Sequence record: PQ382034.1
Reading direction: 5' to 3' (one strand)
DNA from: Acinetobacter phage vB_AbaSI_3
DNA length: 64,000 bases
The translations under genes were made by a program, and so were the position numbers. Below, piece after piece: positions 23,098 through 49,896 of the stretch (position 1 is the first letter of the stretch; each line of letters starts with the position of its first letter). The notes beneath the pieces are model-generated. The model saw nothing but the letters and a program-made list of their open reading frames with translations, ran no database searches and was not told the DNA's origin.

Positions 23098-23685
23098 TCA
23101 AATAGATTTATTTGATAAGGCAATTATATCACATACCTTATTTGAAGTAAACTGCTTTTCTTCATTATCCAATTTTTGTTCAATCGCGATAATGGCATGA
23201 ACCCATTTCTTATAAACGAGTGCACGGCTAATTTTTGATAAACGGCTGATTCGCCATCCTTGATGAATGTAATCCTTTACATCAGATTTGAGTACAATCA
23301 TTTCAGTGTACGAGTCATCAGTTCCTTTGAAAATTTCAACGTATTCACGTTTAGGTTCCCAGAACTTTGGTAAGAGGTCTGTAACGTGGTCAAAGTCAAT
23401 AAACGATTTTCTTGCTTCATCTTTGATCATTGCTTCTTCTAAATCGTCGAAGAGGTTAGGTGACATAGGTTGTACAGAACAAACATCTCCAACAATTTTA
23501 TCAGTTTCACGATTTATATACATATCGCGTACTCTATTTTTAGCCCAGTTTCTACGTTTAGTTCTAGACATACCAGAAGGCATTTTGTGCCCTTCTTGAC
23601 CAATAAGATCTGCCAATCGTTGAATACTGATGCCGAGGTGATGTTGCTCAGGATTTTCATCCTGAGCTATTTGATTAGTAACCAT
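23098..23685 (-). CDS. hypothetical protein
   Basis: About 195 aa from the ATG at 23685 (the track start is TTG at 23700). The gene 56 stop overlaps it. Confidence 0.45.
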   Translation of the reverse strand: MVTNQIAQDENPEQHHLGISIQRLADLIGQEGHKMPSGMSRTKRRNWAKNRVRDMYINRETDKIVGDVCSVQPMSPNLFDDLEEAMIKDEARKSFIDFDHVTDLLPKFWEPKREYVEIFKGTDDSYTEMIVLKSDVKDYIHQGWRISRLSKISRALVYKKWVHAIIAIEQKLDNEEKQFTSNKVCDIIALSNKSI

Positions 23686-24193
23686 TGTTTTGGCGTTCAA
23701 AGTTTTCTTTATTTTTTAAGTAATACAATTCGAACATTTCTTCGGCTCGAATACCTAAAGCATTTGCCATGTTGAGAACGAAATGCATGATATCGATGAA
23801 CTCGAATTTAATTTCAAGTTGATCTTCAGGGCTCAAGTCGCTGATTAAAGTATTACGCATTTCTAGGTTTTTAGAACGCCATGCCTTCCAAACGCTTGAT
23901 GCGGCATTTTCACCATTTGACATACCACCGAGAGATGTGAGCAATTCACGAAACTCATCATCAATAGAATCCTTTTGAGCACGCATCCAATCAACTACTT
24001 TACCAGCAGTGTCTAAATTGCGAGGATCTTGGTTCATTTCAGGTTTATCTTGTGCTAAACGAATCTGCAGACTATTTTGCATATCAAGCATTGTATCGAG
24101 GTACTGTTCGCCATTAAACCGTAAATCTTCTGCAACTTGACGAGCTGCATCGATACCATCAACTAAGTGACTGCATTGATTAAAGTGTGCCAT
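23675..24193 (-). CDS. 56: dCTP pyrophosphatase gp56 (MazG-like dCTPase/dUTPase)
   Basis: Colinear with T4 gp56: MAHFN.C.HL..G.D, VMLDMQ..LQIRLA, LETAG.VV.WMR.QKD.IDDEFRELLTSLG, SPEDQLEIKFE..DI.HFVLNM, LYYLKNKENF.RQ. Start set at 24193 with a GGAG Shine-Dalgarno. Confidence 0.9.
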   Translation of the reverse strand: MAHFNQCSHLVDGIDAARQVAEDLRFNGEQYLDTMLDMQNSLQIRLAQDKPEMNQDPRNLDTAGKVVDWMRAQKDSIDDEFRELLTSLGGMSNGENAASSVWKAWRSKNLEMRNTLISDLSPEDQLEIKFEFIDIMHFVLNMANALGIRAEEMFELYYLKNKENFERQNNGY

Positions 24194-35794: not shown

Positions 35795-36913
35795 TTACTC
35801 CAATAATGCCTTTTCCCACATCGCGTACACACGAGATGGATTGTATTGTTCATATAATGCATTAGCACGTGCAACACGTTGTTCATATGTGTCTTCGAAC
35901 TCATTTAATGCTTTAGAATATGCGGCAATAATATCATTAGTTGACATACCTTCTTCAATCCAAACAACTTTAGTTAATGGATCATGTTCAAGTGTTGCAT
36001 GGCTATAACCACGTTTGATGAGTTGAAGTACAGGCACACCTTTCTCAATAGCTTCCAATGAACCGTGTTCAATAGTGCCTGTGTCATGACAAGTGTTAAC
36101 AAGGACTAGCGCTTCGGCTAATGTTGCCTGGATAGTTGCACGCGGAACATCAATATGTACAAAAGGCTCTTTGAGATATTTCTTAGGTGGTGCCCATTGA
36201 CTTGGCAGGAATGCAGCAATTTTATGATGAGATTTACTCATTGCTTCTAAAGCTACATTTGTCTTTCTGAATTTCAAATCATAGCGCTGTGCTGAAACTA
36301 CAACACCATTAGAAGGCAGCACTTTAGGGCGATTTTCGATTAATGTAGCCGGGAAGAAATTATCTGAGATGATGTCATGCTCTTGCCAATAATCAAAATC
36401 AATTGCACCTTTAGCAACTTTGATATTCATTTTTGAATACACTTGTGCTGTAAGGTCTTTAAATGTTTGAGTTGGCACAAGATTCTTGCCGCCATTTTGG
36501 TGAATAAAAACAGCAGTACGCCAAATTGAAACAAGTGTTCGAATACTAGGATCGAGTGGCGTTGCTAAAAGGTTTCGAATTTTAGGTCCTAACCCGAGTT
36601 TGATCAAGCCATTGATAACACCTTTTGCACCTTCAACAGTAACAACTACATCATATTTTGAATGGTCCAATTGTGAAATTTTGTCAATGATTTTGTTACC
36701 GTGTTTGATAGTGTACTTGTCTACAATTGGGTAGTCAATAGATATTGCATTGACTTTATATGGGCCAAAGTTTTCATCACCGAACGCCATGTAATCGATT
36801 TCATGGTGCTTACTCATTGTTTTGATGAAATTCAATTGAACTGATTCTAAGCCACCAGAAATATAATCAGCATTAAAAGTAATAAATCGACATGGAATGT
36901 ATAAAATTTTCAT
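35795..36913 (-). CDS. GT-B fold glycosyltransferase, paralog 1 (candidate hmC-DNA glycosyltransferase)
   Basis: 372 aa. C-terminal E...G.PV-type motif (NTCHDTGTIEHGSLEAIEKGVPVLQL). About 45% identical to the neighbouring paralog. Located between genes 41 and 42, where T4 has beta-gt. Confidence 0.7.
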   Translation of the reverse strand: MKILYIPCRFITFNADYISGGLESVQLNFIKTMSKHHEIDYMAFGDENFGPYKVNAISIDYPIVDKYTIKHGNKIIDKISQLDHSKYDVVVTVEGAKGVINGLIKLGLGPKIRNLLATPLDPSIRTLVSIWRTAVFIHQNGGKNLVPTQTFKDLTAQVYSKMNIKVAKGAIDFDYWQEHDIISDNFFPATLIENRPKVLPSNGVVVSAQRYDLKFRKTNVALEAMSKSHHKIAAFLPSQWAPPKKYLKEPFVHIDVPRATIQATLAEALVLVNTCHDTGTIEHGSLEAIEKGVPVLQLIKRGYSHATLEHDPLTKVVWIEEGMSTNDIIAAYSKALNEFEDTYEQRVARANALYEQYNPSRVYAMWEKALLE

Positions 36914-36947
36914 GTTTCATCTCAAAGAAAGTGTAGTAGTATTTATG

Positions 36948-36965
36948 GAGCCCGAAGGCTCCAGT
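36948..36965 (-). terminator. hairpin between the two GT genes
   Basis: GGAGCC-CGAAG-GCTCC. Confidence 0.4.
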
Positions 36966-36972
36966 TTCAAAG

Positions 36973-38094
36973 TTATTTTAAAACATTTTCCCAGAGTTTG
37001 AAATATGCTTCTTCGTTAAATTTGTTGTAAAGATATTCAGCCCGAGCAACACGTTGTTCATATGTATCTTCAAACTCATTTAATGCTTTAGCATACATCT
37101 CGATTAATTCTTGAGTACTTGTGCCTTCTTCAAATTCAACTCGAACAGTATTAGGGTCGTACTCAAATGTAGCATGGTTGTATCCTTTTTGAATGAGTTG
37201 AAGTACTGGCGTACCTTGAGAAATAGCTTCAAGCGATCCATTTTCTACTGTACCAGTGTTGTGGCACGTATTGACAAGAAGTTTGGCAGTTGAAATTTCT
37301 TTTTGTATGGTTTGGCGTTTGGCATCGATAATGACCCAGTGATCTTTCTCCAGCCATTTTTTGCCAGGTGCCCATTTCGATGGACAGAATGCGATCTTAG
37401 GCCCATCAAATAAATCCATTGCACCGAATGCAACATTAGATTTTCTGAATGCATTGTCAAACCGTTGGGCTTGTACAATATGCCCTTCAGAATGAAGGAC
37501 TTCAGGTTTATTTGCAATCAAAATCGGCGGATAAAATTCATCTGCAATAATATCATGCTTTTGCCAATAATCAAAATCAATGACTTCTGCAGCAATACGT
37601 TCATTCATTTTAGAATAAACCTTTGCAGCTAAATCTTTAAATGTTTGAGTAGGAACGATATTCTTTCCGCCAAGTTTATGGACCATTACTGCATTGTTCC
37701 AGCATTGTACGATACCACGAACTGATGGGTCAAGTGGAGTAGCAAGAATATTACGAACCTTTGAAATTTGTCCGAGCTCTGCTAATGTATTAAGAACCAT
37801 TTTACTGCCTTCAATGATCACAATAGCATCGTACTGGTCCCAGTCTGTGATTTCTTGAAGTTTGTACTTGATTTTATATGCATGTGCGGTAGTGAACTTT
37901 GCGCCAATAGGTTTATCAATTGATAATTCGTTAACTTTAACACTGCCGAAGTTTTCGTCGCCAAATGAAACGTAATCGATATCATGCACTTTTGACAAGT
38001 TGACAATAAAATTATACTGAACCGCTTCAAGACCGCCAGCAACACGATCAATATCAAATGGCACTGAACGGCAAGGTAAGTATAAAATTTTCAT
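36973..38094 (-). CDS. GT-B fold glycosyltransferase, paralog 2
   Basis: Start trimmed to the ATG at 38094 (GGAG Shine-Dalgarno, 1 nt after the upstream TAA). It then begins MKILYLPCR like paralog 1 (MKILYIPCR). Motif NTCHNTGTVENGSLEAISQGTPVLQL. Confidence 0.7.
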   Translation of the reverse strand: MKILYLPCRSVPFDIDRVAGGLEAVQYNFIVNLSKVHDIDYVSFGDENFGSVKVNELSIDKPIGAKFTTAHAYKIKYKLQEITDWDQYDAIVIIEGSKMVLNTLAELGQISKVRNILATPLDPSVRGIVQCWNNAVMVHKLGGKNIVPTQTFKDLAAKVYSKMNERIAAEVIDFDYWQKHDIIADEFYPPILIANKPEVLHSEGHIVQAQRFDNAFRKSNVAFGAMDLFDGPKIAFCPSKWAPGKKWLEKDHWVIIDAKRQTIQKEISTAKLLVNTCHNTGTVENGSLEAISQGTPVLQLIQKGYNHATFEYDPNTVRVEFEEGTSTQELIEMYAKALNEFEDTYEQRVARAEYLYNKFNEEAYFKLWENVLK

Positions 38095-38095
38095 A

Positions 38096-38638
38096 TTATG
38101 CTCCAATAAAATTTTCAAGGGTTAAATCATAAACAACATCAGTAAATGATTTAGCTTCATTAATATTGTTGTGTACATCATGATCGAGGATTTTATATGG
38201 AGTTATATTAAATTCATCATATACTTCATTAAACCGATCCACAATTGCATTGAATTGATCTTCACTTACTGTAATTAAATCATCAGTAAAGCTATCTACA
38301 AGTTTGTTTCGTGTTAGCCCAATAACCAAGACTTCATTGTTTTGAATGAAACGTCTGAAATCTTCTTTGAAGATTTCAACTGGCTTTCCACGAAGAACAC
38401 TTTCATATACAATGTTACTTAAACCGCCTCGATCCAAAACATAGGTTTTACTGTTATCGACATAATTTAACATTGTTTCAAAAATTGCGACTTCATTTCG
38501 AGTTAGACAAGTGAAACGTCCTTCACTTGTCCTTTTCGGAAATTCCATCAAGGTTACATCAAAATGACGAGTAAGATTGCTAATCAAAGTTGTCTTACCA
38601 GCATTATCAGGCCCTTCTACAAGAATTATTTTTGCCAT
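38096..38638 (-). CDS. P-loop nucleotide/nucleoside kinase (dNK/TMPK-like)
   Basis: 180 aa. Walker A VEGPDNAGKTT at the N-terminus. Size and layout resemble a deoxynucleoside/dNMP kinase. Confidence 0.65.
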   Translation of the reverse strand: MAKIILVEGPDNAGKTTLISNLTRHFDVTLMEFPKRTSEGRFTCLTRNEVAIFETMLNYVDNSKTYVLDRGGLSNIVYESVLRGKPVEIFKEDFRRFIQNNEVLVIGLTRNKLVDSFTDDLITVSEDQFNAIVDRFNEVYDEFNITPYKILDHDVHNNINEAKSFTDVVYDLTLENFIGA

Positions 38639-39570
38639 ACATCTTCACCAGGTTGAATAACTACTTCATCATATGAAGGCATTATATACTCACTAATGAT
38701 GTTAGCATCAAAATAAATCAATTCACCTAACCCGGGATGAAACACATTTTGTGGATTTTCGTTGTAGATAATTGTCGGACGCTGAGACAACGTAATGTAA
38801 TACGCGATCTTTGACATTTTAACATCCATGATGGTTACATCTGGATATAGCTCGGCAATCTGATCTTTAAAATCGACATATGTGTCATTTGGATCTGTGA
38901 TAATGAGCATATTACCAGTTTCTGCACAATCTTTTACAACATCCATGAATCTATAACATTTGTCAGAGAGTCTGAATGGAAAGAATACAATATTAGAACC
39001 CATGTGCTGAGTGTCATCGATATTTTTAATATATCGTGCAATGACATCAGGATTGACTACCTTTTGAGTCATCACAATTTTATCTGCATCGATTCCATGA
39101 GCAATAAATTCTGCTCGTTGAGATTCATTCAATACAAATACTTTAATAGATTGCCGTGCAGTTTCAAGATCAGATTCCCACCATTTATCAATGTATGGAC
39201 GATCTAATCCAGGAACTTTGGAAATATTTGCATTGAAAATAAATTCATGAACTCCATTATAACCAGTGACATCAGTTATTAATACGTCGATGTTGTTTAT
39301 TCGCATAATTTCATCAACATTAGATTCATTCCAATACCAGAACCATTGGCGAGTTTCTTCAGCATTAGTACCATAATGAAATTGTACAAAGTTGAAATCT
39401 GGAAATAAGAATTCTAATTCAGATTTGTCTGAAATGTTGAATGGTACAGCAATCAAATCACCTTTCTGTGCACGATGTAGATGCAACTGAAAGTTGCCGT
39501 CTTTGAGGACGGCATACTTTCTAGTTTCATATGATCGCATCGAAAAAATTGGTACAATCATTCTAGCCAT
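38626..39570 (-). CDS. hypothetical protein in the modification operon
   Basis: 314 aa with no recognised motifs. Flanked by gene 42 and the kinase. Confidence 0.45.
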   Translation of the reverse strand: MARMIVPIFSMRSYETRKYAVLKDGNFQLHLHRAQKGDLIAVPFNISDKSELEFLFPDFNFVQFHYGTNAEETRQWFWYWNESNVDEIMRINNIDVLITDVTGYNGVHEFIFNANISKVPGLDRPYIDKWWESDLETARQSIKVFVLNESQRAEFIAHGIDADKIVMTQKVVNPDVIARYIKNIDDTQHMGSNIVFFPFRLSDKCYRFMDVVKDCAETGNMLIITDPNDTYVDFKDQIAELYPDVTIMDVKMSKIAYYITLSQRPTIIYNENPQNVFHPGLGELIYFDANIISEYIMPSYDEVVIQPGEDVWQK

Positions 39571-39575
39571 ATCAT

Positions 39576-40283
39576 TTATCCTAAAAAGTTCTTAACGTAA
39601 TCCAAATCACGTTCAAATACATGTGCAGATACAATTGAGTGTGCATAAGTGCCAAGTCCTACACCACATTCTTTAGCAACATGTTCCATGAATCGATGCA
39701 TAAGATAAAAATCTAATTGCATTACCACTGCACAGTTTTGACTACGCATATGAGTATGCATGTACAAACGTCCTTCACGAATATAAAAGGTAATAGAATC
39801 TGTACATGGATATTCTAAAGTTTCATCTGAATCTAAAAGAACTTGGTCTTGCTCCTGAAGAATTTGGAAAACTACTCGTCGTGAGTTTGGTTTTTCTTTA
39901 AGTTCTTTAATAAGAGCTGGCATTTGGGCGGCGATTCGTGGCCCGTAGAAGGTGTTGAAATTCGAAGGAAGAGTATCCGTCTTCGGCTTTGCAATGAACT
40001 TCGCGACATTTGGATACTCCTTAAACGCTTGTTCCGCATCTGTGCCACCTTGAATCATGAATTCCCAGAATTTTTCTGCATAACCATAATCAATACGATT
40101 GATACGTTTGTCTTTAAATGTTGCACCAACATCTGGAAGTGCTACCTCTAAAAGAATTGATCCGATTTCACGACATTTGCCGATACGAGAATCCGTGACA
40201 AATTCAGGTTCAGTAATCACTAGATAATTGAGGCGTTTGAATGCTTCTTCAAATGTGCTAGCTAAAATATACTTTGTCATCAA
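39576..40283 (-). CDS. 42: dCMP hydroxymethylase gp42 (thymidylate-synthase fold)
   Basis: 235 aa. NSRRVVFQI (T4 DSRRGIMIY), CTDSITFYIREGRLYMHTHMRSQN (T4 CTNTVQYLIRDKKINAVVNMRSND), and C-terminal S.HVF (T4 SLHVY). Confidence 0.85.
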   Translation of the reverse strand: MMTKYILASTFEEAFKRLNYLVITEPEFVTDSRIGKCREIGSILLEVALPDVGATFKDKRINRIDYGYAEKFWEFMIQGGTDAEQAFKEYPNVAKFIAKPKTDTLPSNFNTFYGPRIAAQMPALIKELKEKPNSRRVVFQILQEQDQVLLDSDETLEYPCTDSITFYIREGRLYMHTHMRSQNCAVVMQLDFYLMHRFMEHVAKECGVGLGTYAHSIVSAHVFERDLDYVKNFLG

Positions 40284-40675
40284 TTCACCTCTGGGACATA
40301 TGGTTGTTTAGATAATAATTCATTGTTACGAAAAGCATCTTTGAATTCTTTAGGGTTCAACGCCTTATCATCAATGATCCAGTCATAAACCGGCTTATGA
40401 GTTATTAAGTGGTGATATTTCAATCCGATTTTCTTGAGATTTTTTATTAAAGGTGGCAAGATAATCGAATCAATTAATTCTGGGCCTACTGACTTCATGC
40501 CTCTGGCTGTGAACAGCGTGATTGTATGCCCTTGATCATATAACGAATTAATAGTATCAACCATCTGTTGGTCTGGAACGAAATTCTCATAATCTCGATT
40601 ATCATTCCAGACAGTAATGGTGTTATCGATATCTATGCAAAAATGTTTTGCACCAGTCATTAAAGTTTCTCCCAA
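40280..40675 (-). CDS. HAD-superfamily phosphatase
   Basis: 131 aa. Motif I CIDIDNTIT (DxDxT). ATGA-coupled to gene 42. Confidence 0.7.
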   Translation of the reverse strand: MGETLMTGAKHFCIDIDNTITVWNDNRDYENFVPDQQMVDTINSLYDQGHTITLFTARGMKSVGPELIDSIILPPLIKNLKKIGLKYHHLITHKPVYDWIIDDKALNPKEFKDAFRNNELLSKQPYVPEVN

Positions 40676-42321
40676 TGCATACCATCAATGAATTTATTTG
40701 GACGATATTTTTCACCGGTTTCTAAATCAATTAAGAGCCATTTATCAGGATTTTTGGTTGTCAATGTAGCGCTGACTAATCCTGTGTCATACGCTACTGA
40801 ACCATCCTGAAGACGTCGTCCCATGTGACTAAGTGTTTTCGATAACAAATACATGCCATAGTAGTATGCACTTACAGCTTTAAGTGGATTGTTTTTGAAA
40901 TATCCCGCAAGCGCGATCCAAATAACAGCAACCCATAAATGATGATACTCATTAAATGGTTCTGCATCAACATTTGTCAAGCCTAATGGCTCAATATTCA
41001 CAATAGCTGAATCGCCATCAATCGATAATCCACCCCACATAGGATCCGCATTAAATTTATCATAACCAGTTAATGCATAAAATACTTTAGCTTCATCATA
41101 AATTCGTGGACCATAAATTTTTGTTTTGCCAAAGTATCCACGTGGATCAATCAAACGAACTTTGCCTTTATCATCTAACATCAAGTTACTAAAGTTCGGG
41201 TCGCCATGAATAATATAGTAATCTTTGTCAGAGGCTTCATACATTAAATGGGCGTATGCTTGTTCAAGCATAGTTTCTAAACGTCCAATTTTATGATGAT
41301 TCACATATTGAATATTGCCAAATGATTGTATTAGTCCTTTAATTTCATTACAACGAGCTAAAACTTTATCGACGACTTCATAACGATAGTCTTCAGCGAT
41401 TTGTTCACGCGATGTGAATTCATTCATTTTAGGGAACTTAAGTGTTTCAAGAATTTCTGTGAGCATTTCTGGTTTATATGCCTCAAACATTGGAACACCT
41501 TTAATTCGTTCCATTTTAAAAGACGTATATTCACCAAAATCACGTCGATCAATGATTTTTGGCACCGCATCACTTTCTACACTATCGTACCATGCAAGTT
41601 CTTCACGTTGAAGTTCTCGCCCCTTTTCATTCAATGCAGTTTTATACACAACATCATTTGCTATTGTAATTGAATTAAATTCTCGATTTAATTCACGGTG
41701 ACGATGTGCGTGTTGGAGTTTTGGTTTATCACCAAGATCAATAAGATTAATCAATTCTTCTTGATACATATTTTTTGCATCAAGCAATTCTACAAAATCA
41801 CGTCCTTTGAAGAATTCGTTCGCTTCATCTTTATCATCAAAGTTACTAATAAAGAAATCTTTAAATTGATAGATGCCGACAACATTACCACCTGTACCAC
41901 CAGTTTCAGTTAATGTTTTGCCATCAAAATTATATCGGCATTCATCACCAAATGTATAAACCGAATTGCTATTCCATGAGAATGCATCAAATTGTGGAAT
42001 GACATCACACCAATTGAATACTACATTATGCAGATTGATCAAATGAGAAATTCGAGAAATTGCATAAGCCGAGCCATAAGCTTCATCAACAGTTTCAACA
42101 ATTATGTCTAACTTGAAAACCTTTGCATACTCACGTACTTGTTCTGCAAATTTGCTATGTACAACCACAATAATTTCATCTGCACCTAATTTTTTGTAGA
42201 TGCCATGCAAATGATGTAGAATTGTATGCTGTTTGTAGTTCACCAAAACTTTAGGAATATGATGTGTGATAGGATACAAACGAGTAGCTAAGCCTGCACC
42301 TAAAATAACCGCTTTTTTCAT
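40660..42321 (-). CDS. bifunctional sugar-1-phosphate nucleotidyltransferase (N-terminal) / APH-choline-kinase-fold sugar kinase (C-terminal)
   Basis: 553 aa. N-terminal ILGAGLATRLYPIT..PK.LV matches the NDP-sugar pyrophosphorylase G.G.R(L) signature. C-terminal HGDPNFSNLML....VRLIDP matches Brenner kinase motif HxDxxxxN...D. Confidence 0.75.
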   Translation of the reverse strand: MKKAVILGAGLATRLYPITHHIPKVLVNYKQHTILHHLHGIYKKLGADEIIVVVHSKFAEQVREYAKVFKLDIIVETVDEAYGSAYAISRISHLINLHNVVFNWCDVIPQFDAFSWNSNSVYTFGDECRYNFDGKTLTETGGTGGNVVGIYQFKDFFISNFDDKDEANEFFKGRDFVELLDAKNMYQEELINLIDLGDKPKLQHAHRHRELNREFNSITIANDVVYKTALNEKGRELQREELAWYDSVESDAVPKIIDRRDFGEYTSFKMERIKGVPMFEAYKPEMLTEILETLKFPKMNEFTSREQIAEDYRYEVVDKVLARCNEIKGLIQSFGNIQYVNHHKIGRLETMLEQAYAHLMYEASDKDYYIIHGDPNFSNLMLDDKGKVRLIDPRGYFGKTKIYGPRIYDEAKVFYALTGYDKFNADPMWGGLSIDGDSAIVNIEPLGLTNVDAEPFNEYHHLWVAVIWIALAGYFKNNPLKAVSAYYYGMYLLSKTLSHMGRRLQDGSVAYDTGLVSATLTTKNPDKWLLIDLETGEKYRPNKFIDGMHWEKL

Positions 42322-42388
42322 AATTAAAAATCCTAAAAGAGTTGTGATACAACTTATAATATCACAACTCTCAATTAAAGTACAATGC

Positions 42389-43018
42389 TTATTTAGATTC
42401 TGCTCTGAGCATAGCTCCTAATGAGCCACCAGGATGGTAAGAATAAAAGTCTTCGCGGGTGAATTGTAAATAATCTGAAAGTGTTACGCCGATAGTGTCA
42501 AGTAGTGTTAATAGAACCGTGGTGCTGGTAGTTGGTGCCAATTGATTGACATCACACTCTACAATATTCGGTACACCGAATTCCATATCAAATGGTGCTT
42601 TTTGCTCTTCAGTTAATTGGCTATTGCAGTGCAACAAGATTTGAAGAACATTAGGACGAATAGTCTTCAAATGACGTGCCATATATTGCATTTCTTCTGT
42701 TTTACCAGAACGCGAAACATGGATAACTACGTCATCATGTCCGATAAATCCTGCATCGCCATGAGAATAATGACATGTATTTAAGTACATAGACGGGATG
42801 CCAAGGCTCGCAAATGATTCTGATGCTTTAGTGGCCAAGTTTGAGTTTTTGCCGACGCCAGTAATCATAATACGTTGTCGATAATTTGATGCTGCCACAG
42901 GCTTCAAAATTTCAAGTAACTTTTCATATTTCACTTGATTTTCTGCAATAAAATCGCCTAGTATTTTAAGCGCCTGTTGTTGAGCCGCTACTACATCTAA
43001 TGCTAATTTGATACTCAT
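42389..43018 (-). CDS. SIS-domain sugar-phosphate isomerase, KdsD/GutQ (arabinose-5-phosphate isomerase)-like, without CBS domains
   Basis: 209 aa. GVGKNSNLATKASESFASLGIPSMYLNTCHYSHGDAGFIGHDDVVIHVSRSGKTEE aligns with E. coli KdsD [56 protein letters not shown]. Confidence 0.8.
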   Translation of the reverse strand: MSIKLALDVVAAQQQALKILGDFIAENQVKYEKLLEILKPVAASNYRQRIMITGVGKNSNLATKASESFASLGIPSMYLNTCHYSHGDAGFIGHDDVVIHVSRSGKTEEMQYMARHLKTIRPNVLQILLHCNSQLTEEQKAPFDMEFGVPNIVECDVNQLAPTTSTTVLLTLLDTIGVTLSDYLQFTREDFYSYHPGGSLGAMLRAESK

Positions 43019-43053
43019 AATGTTTACCTCTAAATTATGGAACTATTATATCA

Positions 43054-45208: not shown

Positions 45209-46381
45209 TTAAAAGTCAAATAAATCTTCTAATGAAGAACGTTTTTCTGCTTGCATACCTGCAGATTCACACATACCTTCCAAAGGTTTCTTATATGTTT
45301 TTGTAAACAATGACATAACGTCAACATGTTTTAAAACATCTTCACGAATTTCTTTAGGAAGTTCGTTGCCTGATGGCCATGCAATAACTTTGTCGCCAAA
45401 TGGATTTCCAGGTTTCAAAGGCAAGATCATAACTTTATCACCTTCACTAATATCCGGTAAGTTATCGAATGCCTTAATTGCACGTCGATACGTCAAAACA
45501 CCACGAATATGACTAGGACATTTCAATCCAGGGAAGCCATTATCATCATATTTTGCAATGTTATTTGCAGTTCTTACACCTGCAATAACTTTGTAATCAA
45601 GATTTCTAAATTCATTTTCAAATTTCTTGAAATAGTCTTGAAGTGGCTTTTCACCTTCTTGAAGCATGATTCGAATACTTTCTAATAATGCATCTTTAAC
45701 CGCTTTAGGTGTAGATGATTGTTGAGTTTCCATGCCCATGATTTTCAAGTATGGCTCTTTAAAACGAGTACCTTCCATGTCATACACATTTAATGCATAA
45801 CGTTTCTTAGCTCGCCAGAATCCGCCGATGCCGTTAGAACCAAGTGGTGGGCATGCAATAGCTTCACGATCCATGAACATTAATTGCTCATAGTTGTTAA
45901 GATATTCGCACAGTTCTTGGAAGCCTGCATTAATAACCGGTTCGATTTTCTTTGAACCTACTGCATCCAAGAAGTCAACTAATTTTTCAGTTGATGCAAA
46001 TTTTTCAATGCCAACTTTATCAATGAGTGGACTCAATTCAATATACAATGAATCTGTATCACCATAAATTACATACGGATGATTAGTTGTTCCACACATT
46101 TCATTAAGGTATGCATTAATTTTTCGTTCTGTCCATTGAAGGACCAATTGTCCGAAAATAGTAATCGCTTCTGCATTACGAAGATCGTAAAATCTAAAGT
46201 AGATATTGCCGAGTGCCCCATATAATGAGTTAATGAGCAACTTCCGATTAATTTGATTCGTATCACACAAAACAATATAATTTTCACATTCATGCTCAAG
46301 TTCAAGCAATTCTTCTTGTGAAAGTGTTTTGAGATATTCGATTTCGGATTCAGTTAAGTCACGACTAAAATCTAATTTCAT
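45209..46381 (-). CDS. 43: DNA polymerase gp43, C-terminal cistron (43B: fingers/motif B, motif C, thumb)
   Basis: 390 aa. Colinear with T4 gp43 residues about 520-898: NRKLLINSLYGALGN (motif B), YGDTDS (motif C), MDREAI, PLGS.G.GGFW.AKKRYALNVYDME, KIMGMETQQSSTPKAV, and C-terminal SLEDLFDF. Confidence 0.92.
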   Translation of the reverse strand: MKLDFSRDLTESEIEYLKTLSQEELLELEHECENYIVLCDTNQINRKLLINSLYGALGNIYFRFYDLRNAEAITIFGQLVLQWTERKINAYLNEMCGTTNHPYVIYGDTDSLYIELSPLIDKVGIEKFASTEKLVDFLDAVGSKKIEPVINAGFQELCEYLNNYEQLMFMDREAIACPPLGSNGIGGFWRAKKRYALNVYDMEGTRFKEPYLKIMGMETQQSSTPKAVKDALLESIRIMLQEGEKPLQDYFKKFENEFRNLDYKVIAGVRTANNIAKYDDNGFPGLKCPSHIRGVLTYRRAIKAFDNLPDISEGDKVMILPLKPGNPFGDKVIAWPSGNELPKEIREDVLKHVDVMSLFTKTYKKPLEGMCESAGMQAEKRSSLEDLFDF

Positions 46382-46677
46382 ATAAACTCCAAATTGATGG
46401 GATTATTCTATAACATCATAATCAACTGACACTATAGCTTTAATTGTTAGTTCCTTTGAACAGGATTCGCAATTGACTTTGAATTCTTCATCAGCATGTC
46501 TCCAATGCTCAAAGTAATCAGACGTGTCAAGTTCAGAATTGCAGTGTGGGCAGTATATTTCAAACATTTCTGTGCCTCAAAAGGGATATGACAATTATAT
46601 CATATCCCTTATCAAAAGCTTAACTATAATTCAGATTGTATAATGTAATACGAATCACTTTAGGCGTACGTTTATAT

Positions 46678-46896
46678 TCAAAACATCGCATTGATAACTT
46701 CGGTGCCGGCAATTACAGGATTTTTAAACATGATACAACCTGTAACAAATCCGGCTAAAAACAACACCGGAATACAGATTAATAGGGCTACAAAAACTCG
46801 ATACCACAAGCTAACGTATTCACCAATTGATTCACAATTTTCATTTGCTACTTTAATTTGTTCGAAGATATTCATAGGCCTAACTCCCACAGGCAT
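46678..46896 (-). CDS. hypothetical membrane protein (inside the gene 43 insertion)
   Basis: 72 aa with one or two TM helices. Confidence 0.35.
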   Translation of the reverse strand: MPVGVRPMNIFEQIKVANENCESIGEYVSLWYRVFVALLICIPVLFLAGFVTGCIMFKNPVIAGTEVINAMF

Positions 46897-47189
46897 TGGT
46901 TTAATAACTGATTGATTGAACGTTCGTTATGTATAGATTCATTAAGAAGCTGAGCTATAACACGATAATCTGTTTCACTATTGCATCGAGCGTTAAGAAT
47001 TGTTTGTGCATTTGTGCGACACATATCAAACGTTTTGAAGAAACTGTCATAACGAGGCAAACGAATTGCATTTAACACATTAGGTTTCCAAACAACATTG
47101 AACTTGCCATTGACTTCATCAATAAAGAACAACATAGTTTCAATAGATTGAGTATATGTGTACTCTTCGGCCGATGTATAAACTCTCAT
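46872..47189 (-). CDS. hypothetical protein (inside the gene 43 insertion)
   Basis: 105 aa. Confidence 0.4.
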   Translation of the reverse strand: MRVYTSAEEYTYTQSIETMLFFIDEVNGKFNVVWKPNVLNAIRLPRYDSFFKTFDMCRTNAQTILNARCNSETDYRVIAQLLNESIHNERSINQLLNQCLWELGL

Positions 47190-47500
47190 CGACTTACCTC
47201 CATATCAAAATCTACAAATTTAGCTCTACATTCCTGATAGACACTATGCATTAAATCTAACACTCCATAATTGAATTGAGAATTTTCTGATTTCCCAAGC
47301 AGAGCTCGGGAGCGTGCCGCTATTTCTGAATTTATAAATTCTAGAACTTCTTTACCTTGTGGATATCGTAGCATCTTAGGCACGAATTGTGCGTCAATAG
47401 TAATATTACATCTGCCTCTTAACACAGTAGCTATAAATGGATAATATTCTATCCAATGCTCGCCTGTCGAGCTTGATATTACTCTATTTTGTCCATACAT
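47186..47500 (-). CDS. hypothetical protein (inside the gene 43 insertion); start trimmed to the ATG at 47500
   Basis: The track start is TTG at 47530. The ATG at 47500 has a GAGGT Shine-Dalgarno. It lies directly downstream of the promoter face of repeat copy 2. Confidence 0.4.
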   Translation of the reverse strand: MYGQNRVISSSTGEHWIEYYPFIATVLRGRCNITIDAQFVPKMLRYPQGKEVLEFINSEIAARSRALLGKSENSQFNYGVLDLMHSVYQECRAKFVDFDMEVSR

Positions 47501-47532
47501 AATAACCTCGTAATATATCAAATTAATCAAAT

Positions 47533-47660
47533 CATCTAATTTCGGCGCTGTGCGCCGGCTGCGCAGCAGCTATTCTGTACCGAACGGCAGATATAATTAG
47601 AGCGGTGAACCGGTAGAACCATTATACCATCAAAATTTTGTAAAGCACTCGTGTGCTTTA
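47533..47660 (-). repeat. 126-bp GC-rich repeat element, copy 2 (inverted relative to copy 1 at 16154-16279)
   Basis: Reverse complement equals copy 1 except at the palindrome centre. Here the TGCTTTA N14 TATAAT motif faces leftward into the ORF at 47186-47500. Confidence 0.9.
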
Positions 47661-47695
47661 TGAATATAGATCATTTTATGAACACTCAAACCAAA

Positions 47696-47923
47696 TCATA
47701 ACAATTCTTGGATTCTTCTAGATTTATACTGCATAAGTTCGGTACGTGTCATTCCTGAAGTGTCCTGTTCACACTGCGTGTTAACTGTTTTAATCATAAT
47801 GAGGGTATTATGATTTATATTATCTATAGGAAGTTGTCGCCGGTGTGTGTCTGGCGTAACTATTCTGCATGGATATTGCTTTGCGATATCTCTAATACTT
47901 TCATAATATTGCTTAAGTGGCAT
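47696..47923 (-). CDS. hypothetical protein (inside the gene 43 insertion)
   Basis: 75 aa. Confidence 0.35.
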   Translation of the reverse strand: MPLKQYYESIRDIAKQYPCRIVTPDTHRRQLPIDNINHNTLIMIKTVNTQCEQDTSGMTRTELMQYKSRRIQELL

Positions 47924-47994
47924 ATCAAATCTCCATAGATTTTAGAATAATTATATCATAATCAAAAAGCAAAGTAAATATTTTAGACAAAAAT

Positions 47995-48016
47995 AAAGGA
48001 CCCATTTGGGTCCTTT
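47995..48016 (-). terminator. terminator hairpin, structural homolog of the hairpin at 16335-16356
   Basis: AAAGGACCC-ATTT-GGGTCCTTT. It has the same flanks (gacaaaaataAAGG...CCTTTag) as the 16335 copy, with compensatory stem changes. Confidence 0.55.
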
Positions 48017-48029
48017 AGATAAAATGAAA

Positions 48030-48386
48030 TTATACAACGCTATACATTGTAACCGCAATAGGTAGAATTTCATTTGTCAATGTATTAAGACTGCCTCCAG
48101 TGATAGGAGTACCTTGGAAACGATGAACGATACGTTCAATTTCAACAACTTTTCGTTTATTAGTTTCTCGATCACGTGGATCAATTACCAATTTGATATT
48201 ATCATCTTTAAATTCCAGTGCAAGGATCCCAAGAGTAATTTTTGCATCTAACGAACGTGTAGAACGAGTATCAATTACTGGAGCTGCTGTGTTAAATTGT
48301 AATTTAGATTGCTGGATCATAATATCTCTACGTACTTTGTAAGTTGATAGGATTATTATATCAATAACCCTATCACATGTAAACAA
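48030..48386 (-). CDS. hypothetical protein (inside the gene 43 insertion)
   Basis: 118 aa. The start may be the internal Met (MIQQSKL...). Confidence 0.4.
   Translation of the reverse strand: MFTCDRVIDIIILSTYKVRRDIMIQQSKLQFNTAAPVIDTRSTRSLDAKITLGILALEFKDDNIKLVIDPRDRETNKRKVVEIERIVHRFQGTPITGGSLNTLTNEILPIAVTMYSVV
48355..48384 (-). promoter_or_regulatory. early promoter within a palindrome (PeSL-like)
   Basis: Minus strand reads GTTTACatgtgatagggttattgaTATAATaatcctatc. The palindrome is GATAGGAT..ACCCTATC. Confidence 0.55.
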
Positions 48387-48387
48387 A

Positions 48388-49896
48388 TTATTTCATTAAT
48401 TTTTTAATCACTTCGGCATTACGTTTTGCAGCCATCATTTTCTTCTTCCATTCTTTACGTTGGAAGAACACTTTAGTAATTTCTTGTGGAATGATACCTT
48501 GCTTTGTCTTCGAATACATCATACCACTTGGCGAGCATGAGAATTCATTTGAAGGGCTCGGCGCAATCTTATTAATGAAATCGCTAAGTTTAGGCGGCGC
48601 AAATTGTCCTGCAATTGTTTCTGGGCTAATGTTTACTTGGCGAATGATTGACGGATACAGAGATGTTACGTCAAACGACAAAACATATTTGTACGCACCA
48701 GGCACAGGGTTTTTAACATATGCGCCTTCATACGGTTGTCGAACATTTGGCTTAGCTTCCGGTAAAACTAAGTGCTCGGCTTTTAATGAGTTGAAGATAA
48801 TTGCATCCCAAGTTTTCACAGGACTCATTACTGTTGCAATATTCATTCGAGCGTAATAGCCCATTGAAATTGACAGGTTGATAAATCCACGTTTTGCGTC
48901 AATTGCTTGTACACAGTACACATCGACAATGTTATATGAAATATAACGCTGGTGGTTTGATTCACGTAATTTGTCGATTGGACCGTCATATTCTAATTTG
49001 TTGATGCCGGCTTCATATTCTGCAATATAATCGAGTTTATATGATGGCTGTGAAGTAAACGCAAACTTTTTATATAAATCCATGTAATCGAGAATCATGA
49101 TTCCAGAAATATTGAAAATTTCTTTATCTCCATACATGTTTTGAATGACTTTTGACGTTACTTTACCAAAAGGACTTAAACGTTTCATGTTCGAGACACC
49201 AAGAACGTTTTTGATACGATTTACAATATATGGAATATCAAATCCTTCAACGTTCCAACCGGTGAAGATGACAGGAGTTTTTTCTTCCCATAAACGAATG
49301 TATTCTAACAGCATTTCCTTTTCTGTTTCGAATGGCATATACACAACTTTATCTAAAATATGTTGTGGAACTTCATCGCCGCCTTCATCAATTGATTTGC
49401 CTGCAAGAACCGGATCCCACTTTGAAACACGTCCACGTTGAGAGTTCAACAAGTCAAACACGTAGTATTTGTCATCAATAGAATCATAGTGTGTAATTGC
49501 ATCAATTTCATATTTTGCAAAGGTCGGATTCGGGAACTCTCCTGCTGTTACCTCGATGTCACAGTTTGCAACACGAATTGCATTTCTGCTATATGTGATG
49601 TCCTTTTTTCCATACACATCAGAAATATATGCAAGTTTGAAGTCATCCATACCTAAAATTTCTACAATTCCACGTGTCTTTTGCATCCAGTCTTTAGCTT
49701 CACGAATGGAGCTAAAACGTTTAGGAATACATGGCTTGCCATAAATGTCTTTATATTTTGATTCAACGCCTTCTTTGGCATGAATGAACAGTGTAGGCTC
49801 ATATGGAATTTCACGAACTTTTTCGACGCCATTTTCCACATAACGCTCTTGAATAAGGTCGCCAGATTGTTCAACTACTAGATAGAAATTATCCAC
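48388..49896 (-). CDS. 43: DNA polymerase gp43, N-terminal cistron (43A: N-terminal domain, 3'-5' exonuclease, palm motif A)
   Basis: 502 aa. Colinear with T4 gp43 residues 1 to about 520: LGMDDFKLAYISD.YG, VANCDIEVT (Exo I), ITHYDSIDD.YYVFDLLNS, IFTGWN.EGFD.PY (Exo II), RYISYNI.DV (Exo III), FDVTSLYPSIIRQVNISPETI (motif A). It ends before motif B. Confidence 0.92.
   Translation of the reverse strand: MDNFYLVVEQSGDLIQERYVENGVEKVREIPYEPTLFIHAKEGVESKYKDIYGKPCIPKRFSSIREAKDWMQKTRGIVEILGMDDFKLAYISDVYGKKDITYSRNAIRVANCDIEVTAGEFPNPTFAKYEIDAITHYDSIDDKYYVFDLLNSQRGRVSKWDPVLAGKSIDEGGDEVPQHILDKVVYMPFETEKEMLLEYIRLWEEKTPVIFTGWNVEGFDIPYIVNRIKNVLGVSNMKRLSPFGKVTSKVIQNMYGDKEIFNISGIMILDYMDLYKKFAFTSQPSYKLDYIAEYEAGINKLEYDGPIDKLRESNHQRYISYNIVDVYCVQAIDAKRGFINLSISMGYYARMNIATVMSPVKTWDAIIFNSLKAEHLVLPEAKPNVRQPYEGAYVKNPVPGAYKYVLSFDVTSLYPSIIRQVNISPETIAGQFAPPKLSDFINKIAPSPSNEFSCSPSGMMYSKTKQGIIPQEITKVFFQRKEWKKKMMAAKRNAEVIKKLMK

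Follow-up and report, generated by a model that had tools for sequence, protein, structure and literature searches.

The operon at positions 43018-35795 of a 64,000-nucleotide stretch of Acinetobacter phage vB_AbaSI_3 (PQ382034.1; the window, in what follows, is the whole of that stretch) is very probably the cytosine hydroxylation-arabinosylation system of Lazarusvirus phages, in which the DNA carries 5-hydroxycytosine (5hoC) bearing up to three arabinoses. Eight closely spaced open reading frames (ORFs) on the minus strand fill this interval, with almost no gaps between them. The assignment is favoured by the gene order and protein identities, the chemistry published for the related phage DLP3, the signature of a thymidylate synthase (ThyA) homolog, the predicted protein folds and the presence of a phage dCTPase. 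An isomerase with a SIS domain, a fused nucleotidyltransferase (NTase) and kinase, a HAD phosphatase, a ThyA homolog with the motif RSQN, a small GT-B glycosyltransferase (GT) and a P-loop kinase are co-located and syntenic with their counterparts in DLP3 and RB69. Judged by sequence, the cluster is predicted to belong to the Straboviridae cytosine arabinosylation system already published, each defining feature that can be looked for in sequence being present.

The system is already known from experiments on DLP3 and RB69 (bioRxiv 2025, NAR 2026, PMC13326640), and the view of the first-pass annotation of this DNA, that such a gene set and route were undescribed, is out of date after the 2025-2026 papers. 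Nothing is added here as a discovery beyond them; the practical value lies in correct annotation. The public records of close relatives name the genes inconsistently and often wrongly, as dCMP hydroxymethylase, thymidylate synthase, DNA alpha-glucosyltransferase, phosphoheptose isomerase, UDP-glucose dehydrogenase, polynucleotide kinase, CTP:phosphocholine cytidylyltransferase or hypothetical protein. The system itself is of interest as a second route to sugar-coated phage cytosine, independent of 5-hydroxymethylcytosine (hmC), in which a thymidylate-synthase homolog has given up folate one-carbon chemistry for hydroxylation with flavin and O2. The modification makes the DNA of therapeutic Acinetobacter baumannii phages resistant to most restriction enzymes tested and alters their sensitivity to other defences.

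Relatives and the proposed pathway

The phage belongs to the genus Lazarusvirus. DNA of the region is 97-98.6% identical to that of Acinetobacter phages MD-2021a, AC4, DLP2, Berthold, KARL-1 and others, and at least 80% of it is covered in 51 phage records; since every one of the eight ORFs also has a strong PHROG match (E 5e-31 to 3e-255), the cluster is not a product of chance. The GT region is 98.3% identical in DNA to that of vB_AbaM_DLP3 (DLP3), a Lazarusvirus, and 78% identical to that of Maestro, for which arabinosyl-5hoC has been reported; the system is also attributed to Bas46/47 and Serratia phages (with Maestro, Cell Host Microbe 2025) and to HY126 (Nat Chem Biol 2026), all as cited in PMC13326640. 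In DLP3, a phage of the same genus, gp76-gp83 correspond to these eight genes one by one, with their order unchanged. Since six of the eight proteins are 96-99.5% identical to those of DLP3 (Table 1), tri-arabinosyl-5hoC is expected here as in DLP3.

The virion DNA of DLP3 contains no ordinary deoxycytidine (PMC13326640). Its modified nucleosides, of m/z 640, 508 and 376, shed one to three pentoses in tandem mass spectrometry (MS/MS) to leave a base ion of 128.05, which is 5hoC; hmC would give 142.06 (PMC13326640). Nuclear magnetic resonance (NMR), gas chromatography-mass spectrometry (GC-MS) and MS/MS together gave the structure beta-D-Araf-(1-5)-beta-D-Araf-(1-3)-alpha-D-Araf (Araf, arabinofuranose), ether-linked to 5-hydroxy-2'-deoxycytidine, with the sugar attached directly to O5 of the base (PMC13326640). 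A de novo route to NDP-D-arabinose ending in more than one sugar, as the first-pass annotation had proposed for this operon, has thus been shown chemically for a phage whose proteins are 79-99.5% identical to those encoded here.

Identity to DLP3 is uneven along the operon. A patch of about 1.3 kb (~39.4-40.7 kb), which takes in the HAD gene and a stretch of the ThyA-like one, has diverged to as little as 74% per 200 bp, and a second patch, 200 bp of the isomerase gene (42600-42800), is only 80% identical; identity in the two runs from 74 to 92%, against 97-100% in their flanks. The larger patch accounts for the low identities of the HAD and ThyA-like proteins. The Lazarusviruses phi1_092060 and Berthold match the window's version of it; phi1_092060 is 94-99% identical over most of its length and 90% in the first 200 bp, and 82% identical in the isomerase patch. 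Such a pattern suggests that members of the genus have exchanged alleles of the HAD/ThyA-like and isomerase genes of the modification operon.

The pathway would begin with the phage dCTPase, converting dCTP to dCMP, which the ThyA-like enzyme would hydroxylate at C5 with flavin and O2 to give 5-hydroxy-dCMP. A gp1-type deoxynucleoside monophosphate (dNMP) kinase, encoded outside the window, and the host nucleoside diphosphate kinase would then produce the triphosphate, and the phage polymerase would insert 5hoC for every C. In parallel, the SIS isomerase would turn ribulose 5-phosphate into D-arabinose 5-phosphate (Ara-5-P), the kinase half of the 553-aa enzyme would phosphorylate C1 to give arabinose 1,5-bisphosphate (Ara-1,5-P2), the small HAD protein would remove the 5-phosphate, and the NTase half would use UTP to form UDP-D-arabinofuranose (UDP-Araf). 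The 314-aa GT-B protein would place alpha-Araf on O5 of the base and the paralogous GT-Bs would extend the chain on DNA by a second Araf (beta-1,3) and a third (beta-1,5), building a bulky trisaccharide that would protect the DNA against restriction enzymes and further defences aimed at DNA. The hydroxylation, the structure of the base and the addition of the third sugar to DNA by the paralog pair are published for close homologs (PMC13326640), and the kinase, phosphatase and NTase chemistry for HY126, as relayed in PMC13326640. The first transfer by the 314-aa protein, and any role of the P-loop kinase, we infer.

Several points weigh against this assignment. The DNA chemistry comes from DLP3 and RB69 and not from this exact phage; the HAD (78.6%) and ThyA-like (90.2%) proteins lie in the patch that has diverged from DLP3, though their motifs are intact; the P-loop kinase has no assigned step; and no single GT arabinosylated 5hoC-DNA in vitro, so that the first transfer step is a proposed one (PMC13326640).

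Glycosyltransferases and the thymidylate-kinase-like protein

The two tandem GTs are paralogs (57% identity, E 1e-158), as had been recognized earlier. The one at 38094-36973 is 43% and the one at 36913-35795 is 41% identical to RB69 ORF003c, and both match the PDB entry 9iqz, 'phage HY126 glycosyltransferase', at E 2e-94, the 373-aa protein matching 9ir0 as well. The 314-aa protein between the ThyA homolog and the kinase, formerly listed as unknown, is predicted to fold as a GT-B enzyme with two Rossmann-like domains; a 46-sequence profile of its family had no match in the PDB, so the fold is taken from structure prediction. Two GTs and two sugars had been foreseen, but on this model the operon is predicted to hold three GTs, matching the three arabinoses of DLP3.

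All three share the GT-B fold of T4 alpha-gt, and the label 'DNA alpha-glucosyltransferase' found in relatives is a naming convenience. The further claim that T4 glucosyltransferase homologs are missing stands for beta-gt, with which tblastn, at E 1e-3, found no homolog in the window; the sequence queries did not include T4 alpha-gt, and the DLP3 paper reports of DLP3 that it lacks homologs of both T4 enzymes (PMC13326640).

In vitro, RB69 DNA receives the third Araf from UDP-Araf when DLP3 gp76 and gp77 are combined, whereas either protein on its own does not add it (PMC13326640); which of the tandem paralogs adds which sugar we infer. DLP3 gp79, of the 314-aa type, has been put forward as the first, alpha-linking transferase, though its authors could neither demonstrate this nor decide between nucleotide and DNA as its substrate (PMC13326640). 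By analogy, the 314-aa protein of the window (GT1) is proposed to add the first (alpha) arabinose to O5 of 5hoC.

The literature on Shewanella phage Thanatos touches this family. Beside the ThyA homolog TH1_062 lies a 300-aa protein, TH1_063, reported as a UDP-xylose pyrophosphorylase (PMC12838424), and another paper gives Thanatos a single arabinosyltransferase syntenic with DLP3 gp79; the two claims clash if that arabinosyltransferase is TH1_063.

The 180-aa kinase next to GT1 has the P-loop GPDNAGKT and the motif LDRGxxSNxVY, corresponding to the DRxxxS..Y pattern of thymidylate kinases (TMPKs), and belongs to PHROG 761. The Pfam model Thymidylate_kin matches 9 of 19 members of its family, the window protein itself scoring E 0.002, below the cut-off. 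A sequence search of the PDB with the kinase gave no match, and profile-profile comparison revealed, as expected, no link between its family and that of GT1. The first 13 nt of the kinase gene overlap the end of GT1. Searching IMG/VR with the kinase family returned 20 loci, 18 of which also have an RSQN ThyA homolog and GT1 within 9 kb. The full set of isomerase, NTase-kinase, HAD, RSQN ThyA, small GT-B and kinase is present in 15 of the 20, and three more (L025-L027) miss only the isomerase within 9 kb. The triad of RSQN ThyA, small GT-B and kinase recurs in Rhizobium phage RL38J1, which attaches hexoses, so the kinase tracks the base and not the sugar. In Klebsiella Marfa-type loci the kinase is apart from GT1.

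A kinase homolog also lies between the genes for DNA polymerase and uvsX of Morganella phage vB_MmoM_MP1 (L029:4496-5026), where a ThyA homolog, a small GT and the arabinose genes are all missing within 9 kb of it. Either a modification cluster was lost here and this copy is what is left of it, or the copy points to an independent role for the kinase. A strict tie of the kinase to the 5hoC system was rejected, MP1 having the kinase alone.

The kinase is central to an alternative in which the first sugar is added before replication: the acidic GT1 would arabinosylate 5-hydroxy-dCMP, the TMPK-like kinase would phosphorylate the product, and the polymerase would incorporate mono-arabinosyl-5-hydroxy-deoxycytidine (5hodC), with sugars two and three alone being added on DNA. 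This order of events would fit the failure of single GTs on 5hoC-DNA and the authors' difficulty in placing the first step (PMC13326640), the 13-nt overlap with GT1, and the association with RSQN ThyA and GT1 in the 18 loci and in hexose-using RL38J1. A gp1-type dNMP kinase coexists with the TMPK-like one in DLP3 and RL38J1, which suggests that the two are not redundant, and the GT1 family is acidic, with a median isoelectric point of 5.06 vs. 9.05 for T4 beta-GT. Against all this, MP1 has the kinase with neither ThyA homolog nor GT1, the Marfa-type loci do not keep it beside GT1, and the gp1-type kinase alone is enough for 5hodC in DNA (PMC13326640). Phage DNA glycosylation is, in all known cases, post-replicative; in vitro negatives have many trivial causes, and an isoelectric point is weak evidence. 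We give glycosylation of the nucleotide an outside chance, and prefer the building of the trisaccharide on 5hoC already in DNA.

The modified base and the activated sugar

The ThyA-like protein was aligned with E. coli ThyA, T4 gp42, DLP3 gp80, RB69 gp48 and RL38J1_216. In ThyA numbering it has the catalytic Cys 146, Glu 143, Asp 177 (associated with dCMP preference) and Asn 169. The last, which is Asn182 of the 234-aa protein, ends the motif RSQN at residues 179-182, where T4 gp42 has RSND; Asn is also present in DLP3 gp80, RB69 gp48 and RL38J1_216, while the residue is Asp in E. coli ThyA and in T4 gp42. The change D169N is the diagnostic residue of 5-hydroxy-dCMP synthases according to Lee et al. 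(PMC13326640), and DLP3 gp80 and RB69 gp48 have been found to place 5-hydroxy-dC in DNA in vivo, to take the oxygen from 18O2 and to bind flavin (PMC13326640). The protein is 90% identical to DLP3 gp80 and 70% to RB69 gp48 vs. 21% to T4 gp42 (E 3e-9), and among PDB entries it matches 9iqu, 9iqc and 9ir2 at E 1e-110, T4 gp42 (1b49) following at E 6e-4. The Asn at 169, the contrast between 70% and 21% identity and the PDB ranking all argue that it is not a dCMP hydroxymethylase; by sequence it is identified as a putative flavin/O2-dependent 5-hydroxy-dCMP synthase, and the base as probable 5hoC rather than hmC.

The first-pass annotation had read this gene as gene 42, a T4-type dCMP hydroxymethylase, with the sugars on hmC (arabinosyl-hmC). 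The gene does sit at the position of T4 gene 42, many relatives are annotated in the same way, Asp at 177 and an acidic residue at 143 are shared with gp42, and Thomas et al. (2018) called the RB69 base ara-hmC. The 2018 assignment has, however, been declared erroneous by later papers. All 5hodCMP synthases tested share Asn at 169, where gp42 has retained Asp, and the base fragment of DLP3 and RB69 DNA is m/z 128.05 and not 142.06, NMR placing the sugar on C5-O (PMC13326640). With identity to gp42 so far below that to RB69 gp48, hmC as the acceptor is very improbable. A gp42-type hydroxymethylase was ruled out as a candidate for this protein by the Asn at 169 and the 21% identity.

A gp56-type dCTPase is encoded elsewhere in the window, where tblastn with DLP3 gp51 found 99.4% identity over all 172 residues. 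On the T4 paradigm, and following Table 1 of the DLP3 paper, it would remove dCTP and supply dCMP.

On the sugar side, the isomerase was correctly seen at the outset as KdsD/GutQ-like. Its best NCBIfam models are those of KpsF/GutQ/KdsD (TIGR00393 kpsF at 3.6e-29, KdsD at 2e-25, both below the curated cut-offs), the match being confined to the SIS portion of these longer models (for KdsD, 46-202 of 328 model residues); cellular arabinose-5-phosphate isomerases carry extra CBS domains. No match to GmhA was obtained in the NCBIfam search. PHROG 5670, 'arabinose 5-phosphate isomerase', is matched at E 2e-98, the PDB matches are 5uqi, 3etn and 2xhz, and RB69 ORF055 is 58% identical. The protein thus groups with the KpsF/KdsD/GutQ arabinose-5-phosphate isomerases, which convert ribulose 5-phosphate to D-arabinose 5-phosphate.

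The 553-aa protein shows both of the folds foreseen for it, an NTase and a choline-kinase/APH-like kinase. HldE, by comparison, has a kinase with a ribokinase-like fold. The signature motifs of the sugar pathway (GxGxRxxPxxxxxPK, HGDxxxxN, IDPRG and a Lys/Glu pair) are invariant in 48 homologs. The HAD protein has its DxDxT motif as DIDNT at residues 10-14, matches PDB 9iqw at E 2e-47 and also 1xpj, has an NCBIfam match to 'capsule biosynthesis phosphatase', and is 62% identical to RB69 ORF051. In HY126, AfhE and AfhF act on Ara-5-P by phosphorylating its C1, taking off the 5-phosphate and uridylylating the resulting Araf-1-P (He et al., as relayed in PMC13326640). The published route goes via Ara-1,5-P2 and not free arabinose; the HAD protein is assigned, from the literature on its homologs, to the 5-phosphate of Ara-1,5-P2, giving Araf-1-P after the kinase step, and not to release of the free sugar. 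The comparison with these homologs supports the view that the cluster encodes a whole route from ribulose 5-phosphate to NDP-D-arabinose together with DNA arabinosyltransferases.

Might the sugar genes instead be an auxiliary metabolic module for a capsule- or lipopolysaccharide-type glycan of the host or virion surface, unrelated to DNA? The annotations of relatives (kpsF, 'capsule biosynthesis phosphatase', 'capsular polysaccharide') and the best NCBIfam matches, to KpsF and to the EcbF/BcbF capsule phosphatase, would point that way. Translational coupling to the ThyA homolog, the setting among replication genes and the travelling of the module with an RSQN ThyA homolog across diverse phages tell against it, as do the arabinose on DLP3 and RB69 DNA and the use of UDP-Araf on DNA by the GT paralogs (PMC13326640), and there is next to no chance that it is right.

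Equally hard to credit is a different activated sugar, e.g. ADP- or GDP-heptose by a GmhA/HldE/GmhB-type route, with which the cluster shares the logic of isomerase, C1 kinase, distal phosphatase and nucleotidyltransferase, a PHROG 1238 label 'phosphoheptose isomerase', HddC among the NTase matches and GmhB as the published best AFDB match of the HAD protein (PMC13326640), for the isomerase matches KpsF/KdsD/GutQ and solved arabinose-5-phosphate isomerases, and the DLP3 sugars are D-arabinofuranose by NMR and GC-MS, with MS/MS losses of pentose only, 132 Da (PMC13326640). The first-pass annotation had itself named a GmhA/heptose placement as the result that would speak against arabinose; it was looked for, and the isomerase gave no GmhA match while the kinase is APH/choline-kinase-like, not ribokinase-like as in HldE. 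The activated sugar is accordingly best read as UDP-arabinofuranose.

Homologs of the phage NTase-kinase (~30% identity) also occur within 890-950-aa HAD-SIS-NTase-kinase fusions (proteins P0176-P0207). The four-domain arrangement ties the four sugar activities into one pathway, and each fusion may be a single-polypeptide NDP-sugar pathway. The fusion genes at L030:8001-10718 and L031:8001-10730 lie in dense, intron-free contigs of giant-virus-like look, among genes for Arf/Ras GTPase, RING, UFD1, DHFR-TS, collagen-repeat and cytochrome b5 proteins; copies are found in a rotifer assembly as well.

Locus layout and comparison with known systems

The single minus-strand operon was described correctly from the start, all eight ORFs having the predicted folds and lying at the limits first given for them. 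Down the operon the intergenic spacing is 67, -1, -1, 5, -13, 1, 59 and 3 nt, and homologs of gp40 and gp41 come next. The NTase-kinase and HAD genes overlap by 1 nt as TAATG, and the HAD and ThyA-like genes by 1 nt as TGATG, not by the ATGA formerly reported. In annotated relatives the starts are ATG at 38094, 40660 and 40280, giving 373, 126 and 234 aa; the ORF caller picks upstream TTG codons at 38118, 40675 and 40283, and the ATG starts abolish the apparent long overlaps. In T4, the interval between genes 41 and 42 contains 40, uvsX and beta-gt, as had been stated, and also segA, which had been left out.

Table 1. Genes of the modification operon and the dCTPase gene encoded outside it, with their relatives
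Product	Position in window	Strand	Related genes	Protein identity to DLP3
Arabinose-5-phosphate isomerase (predicted), single SIS domain, 209 aa	42389..43018	-	DLP3 gp83 / RB69 ORF055 ortholog	96.2%
Bifunctional sugar kinase / sugar-1-phosphate nucleotidyltransferase (predicted), 553 aa	40660..42321	-	DLP3 gp82, RB69 ORF053:052, HY126 AfhE-like	99.1%
Small HAD phosphatase, 126 aa	40280..40660	-	DLP3 gp81, RB69 ORF051, HY126 AfhF-like	78.6%
Putative 5-hydroxy-dCMP synthase, ThyA-superfamily hydroxylase, 234 aa	39576..40280	-	DLP3 gp80, RB69 gp48	90.2%
Predicted GT-B glycosyltransferase without Pfam family (GT1), 314 aa	38626..39570	-	DLP3 gp79, RB69 ORF047:046	98.7%
Thymidylate-kinase-like P-loop kinase, 180 aa	38096..38638	-	DLP3 gp78, RB69 ORF045, RL38J1_214	99.4%
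GT-B (GT4-like) arabinosyltransferase paralog (predicted), 373 aa	36973..38094	-	DLP3 gp77 ortholog	99.5%
GT-B (GT4-like) arabinosyltransferase paralog (predicted), 372 aa	35795..36913	-	DLP3 gp76 ortholog	99.2%
dCTPase, T4 gp56-type	23675..24193	-	DLP3 gp51 ortholog; outside the eight-gene cluster	

A scan of 33.5-46.5 kb for sigma-70 promoters and intrinsic terminators gave counts not above those in shuffled sequence, and a single copy of the late-promoter motif of T4, TATAAATA, is present in the 64 kb, where 7 would be expected; with the scan at chance level, nothing is claimed on transcription units or timing beyond the tight spacing. On the minus strand, the gap between the isomerase and NTase-kinase genes (42322-42388) contains a hairpin, GAGTTGTGATA...TATCACAACTC, followed by a T-run, and that between the GT paralogs (36914-36972) the hairpin GGAGCC-TTCG-GGCTCC with a UUCG tetraloop. 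An extended -10-like element, TGATATAAT, lies at 43044-43052 on the same strand, some 25 nt upstream of the isomerase start.

The DNA polymerase gene upstream, the gp43 homolog, is split over two minus-strand ORFs (window 45209-49896). The first (49896-48388, 502 aa) matches T4 gp43 residues 4-500 and the second (46381-45209, 390 aa) residues 547-897, with about 2 kb and five small ORFs (72-118 aa) between them; some phages related to T4 have been described with gene 43 in two parts.

Among systems outside the genus, that of RB69 (ORF045-055 plus ORF003c) has orthologs of all eight window genes, at 41-70% identity, with isomerase, NTase-kinase, HAD, ThyA-like, GT1 and kinase in the same order. 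It differs in having a single GT of the ORF003c type, far off beside rIIA, and it stops at mono- and di-arabinosyl-5hoC, whereas the window has a tandem GT pair beside the kinase, fitting a third sugar. RB69 has, in addition, ORF049 and a U32-like gene, ORF050, both absent from the window, and uvsX between its cluster and gene 40, which is not so here. The Afh system of HY126, an Escherichia phage and thus from an enterobacterial host, is ~40-70% identical to the window; its structures match the ThyA-like protein (9iqu/9iqc/9ir2, 1e-110), the HAD protein (9iqw, 2e-47) and the GTs (9iqz/9ir0, 2e-94), these PDB entries being assigned to HY126 by the label of 9iqz and their adjacent entry codes.

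T4 hmC glucosylation (gp56, gp42, gp1, alpha-gt, beta-gt) resembles the proposed system in its dCTPase, its ThyA-family dCMP enzyme and the addition of sugars by GT-B enzymes, and the modification module likewise lies between homologs of genes 43 and 41. The two differ in that the window would use flavin/O2 hydroxylation with an ether at C5-O where T4 uses folate hydroxymethylation, and a phage-made pentofuranose where T4 draws on host UDP-glucose. ADP-heptose synthesis by GmhA, HldE and GmhB is a likeness of logic, with a SIS isomerase, a fusion of anomeric kinase and nucleotidyltransferase, and a HAD enzyme that removes the distal phosphate of a bisphosphate; with its five-carbon sugar, KdsD/KpsF-type isomerase and APH/choline-kinase-type kinase, the window cluster would be an analog of that pathway and not a member. 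The RSQN ThyA, small GT-B and TMPK-like kinase of Rhizobium phage RL38J1 stand in the same order as here, but that phage is one of the Pootjesviridae, its sugars are galactose and glucose, genes for an arabinose pathway are absent from it, and identity is only 21-31%.

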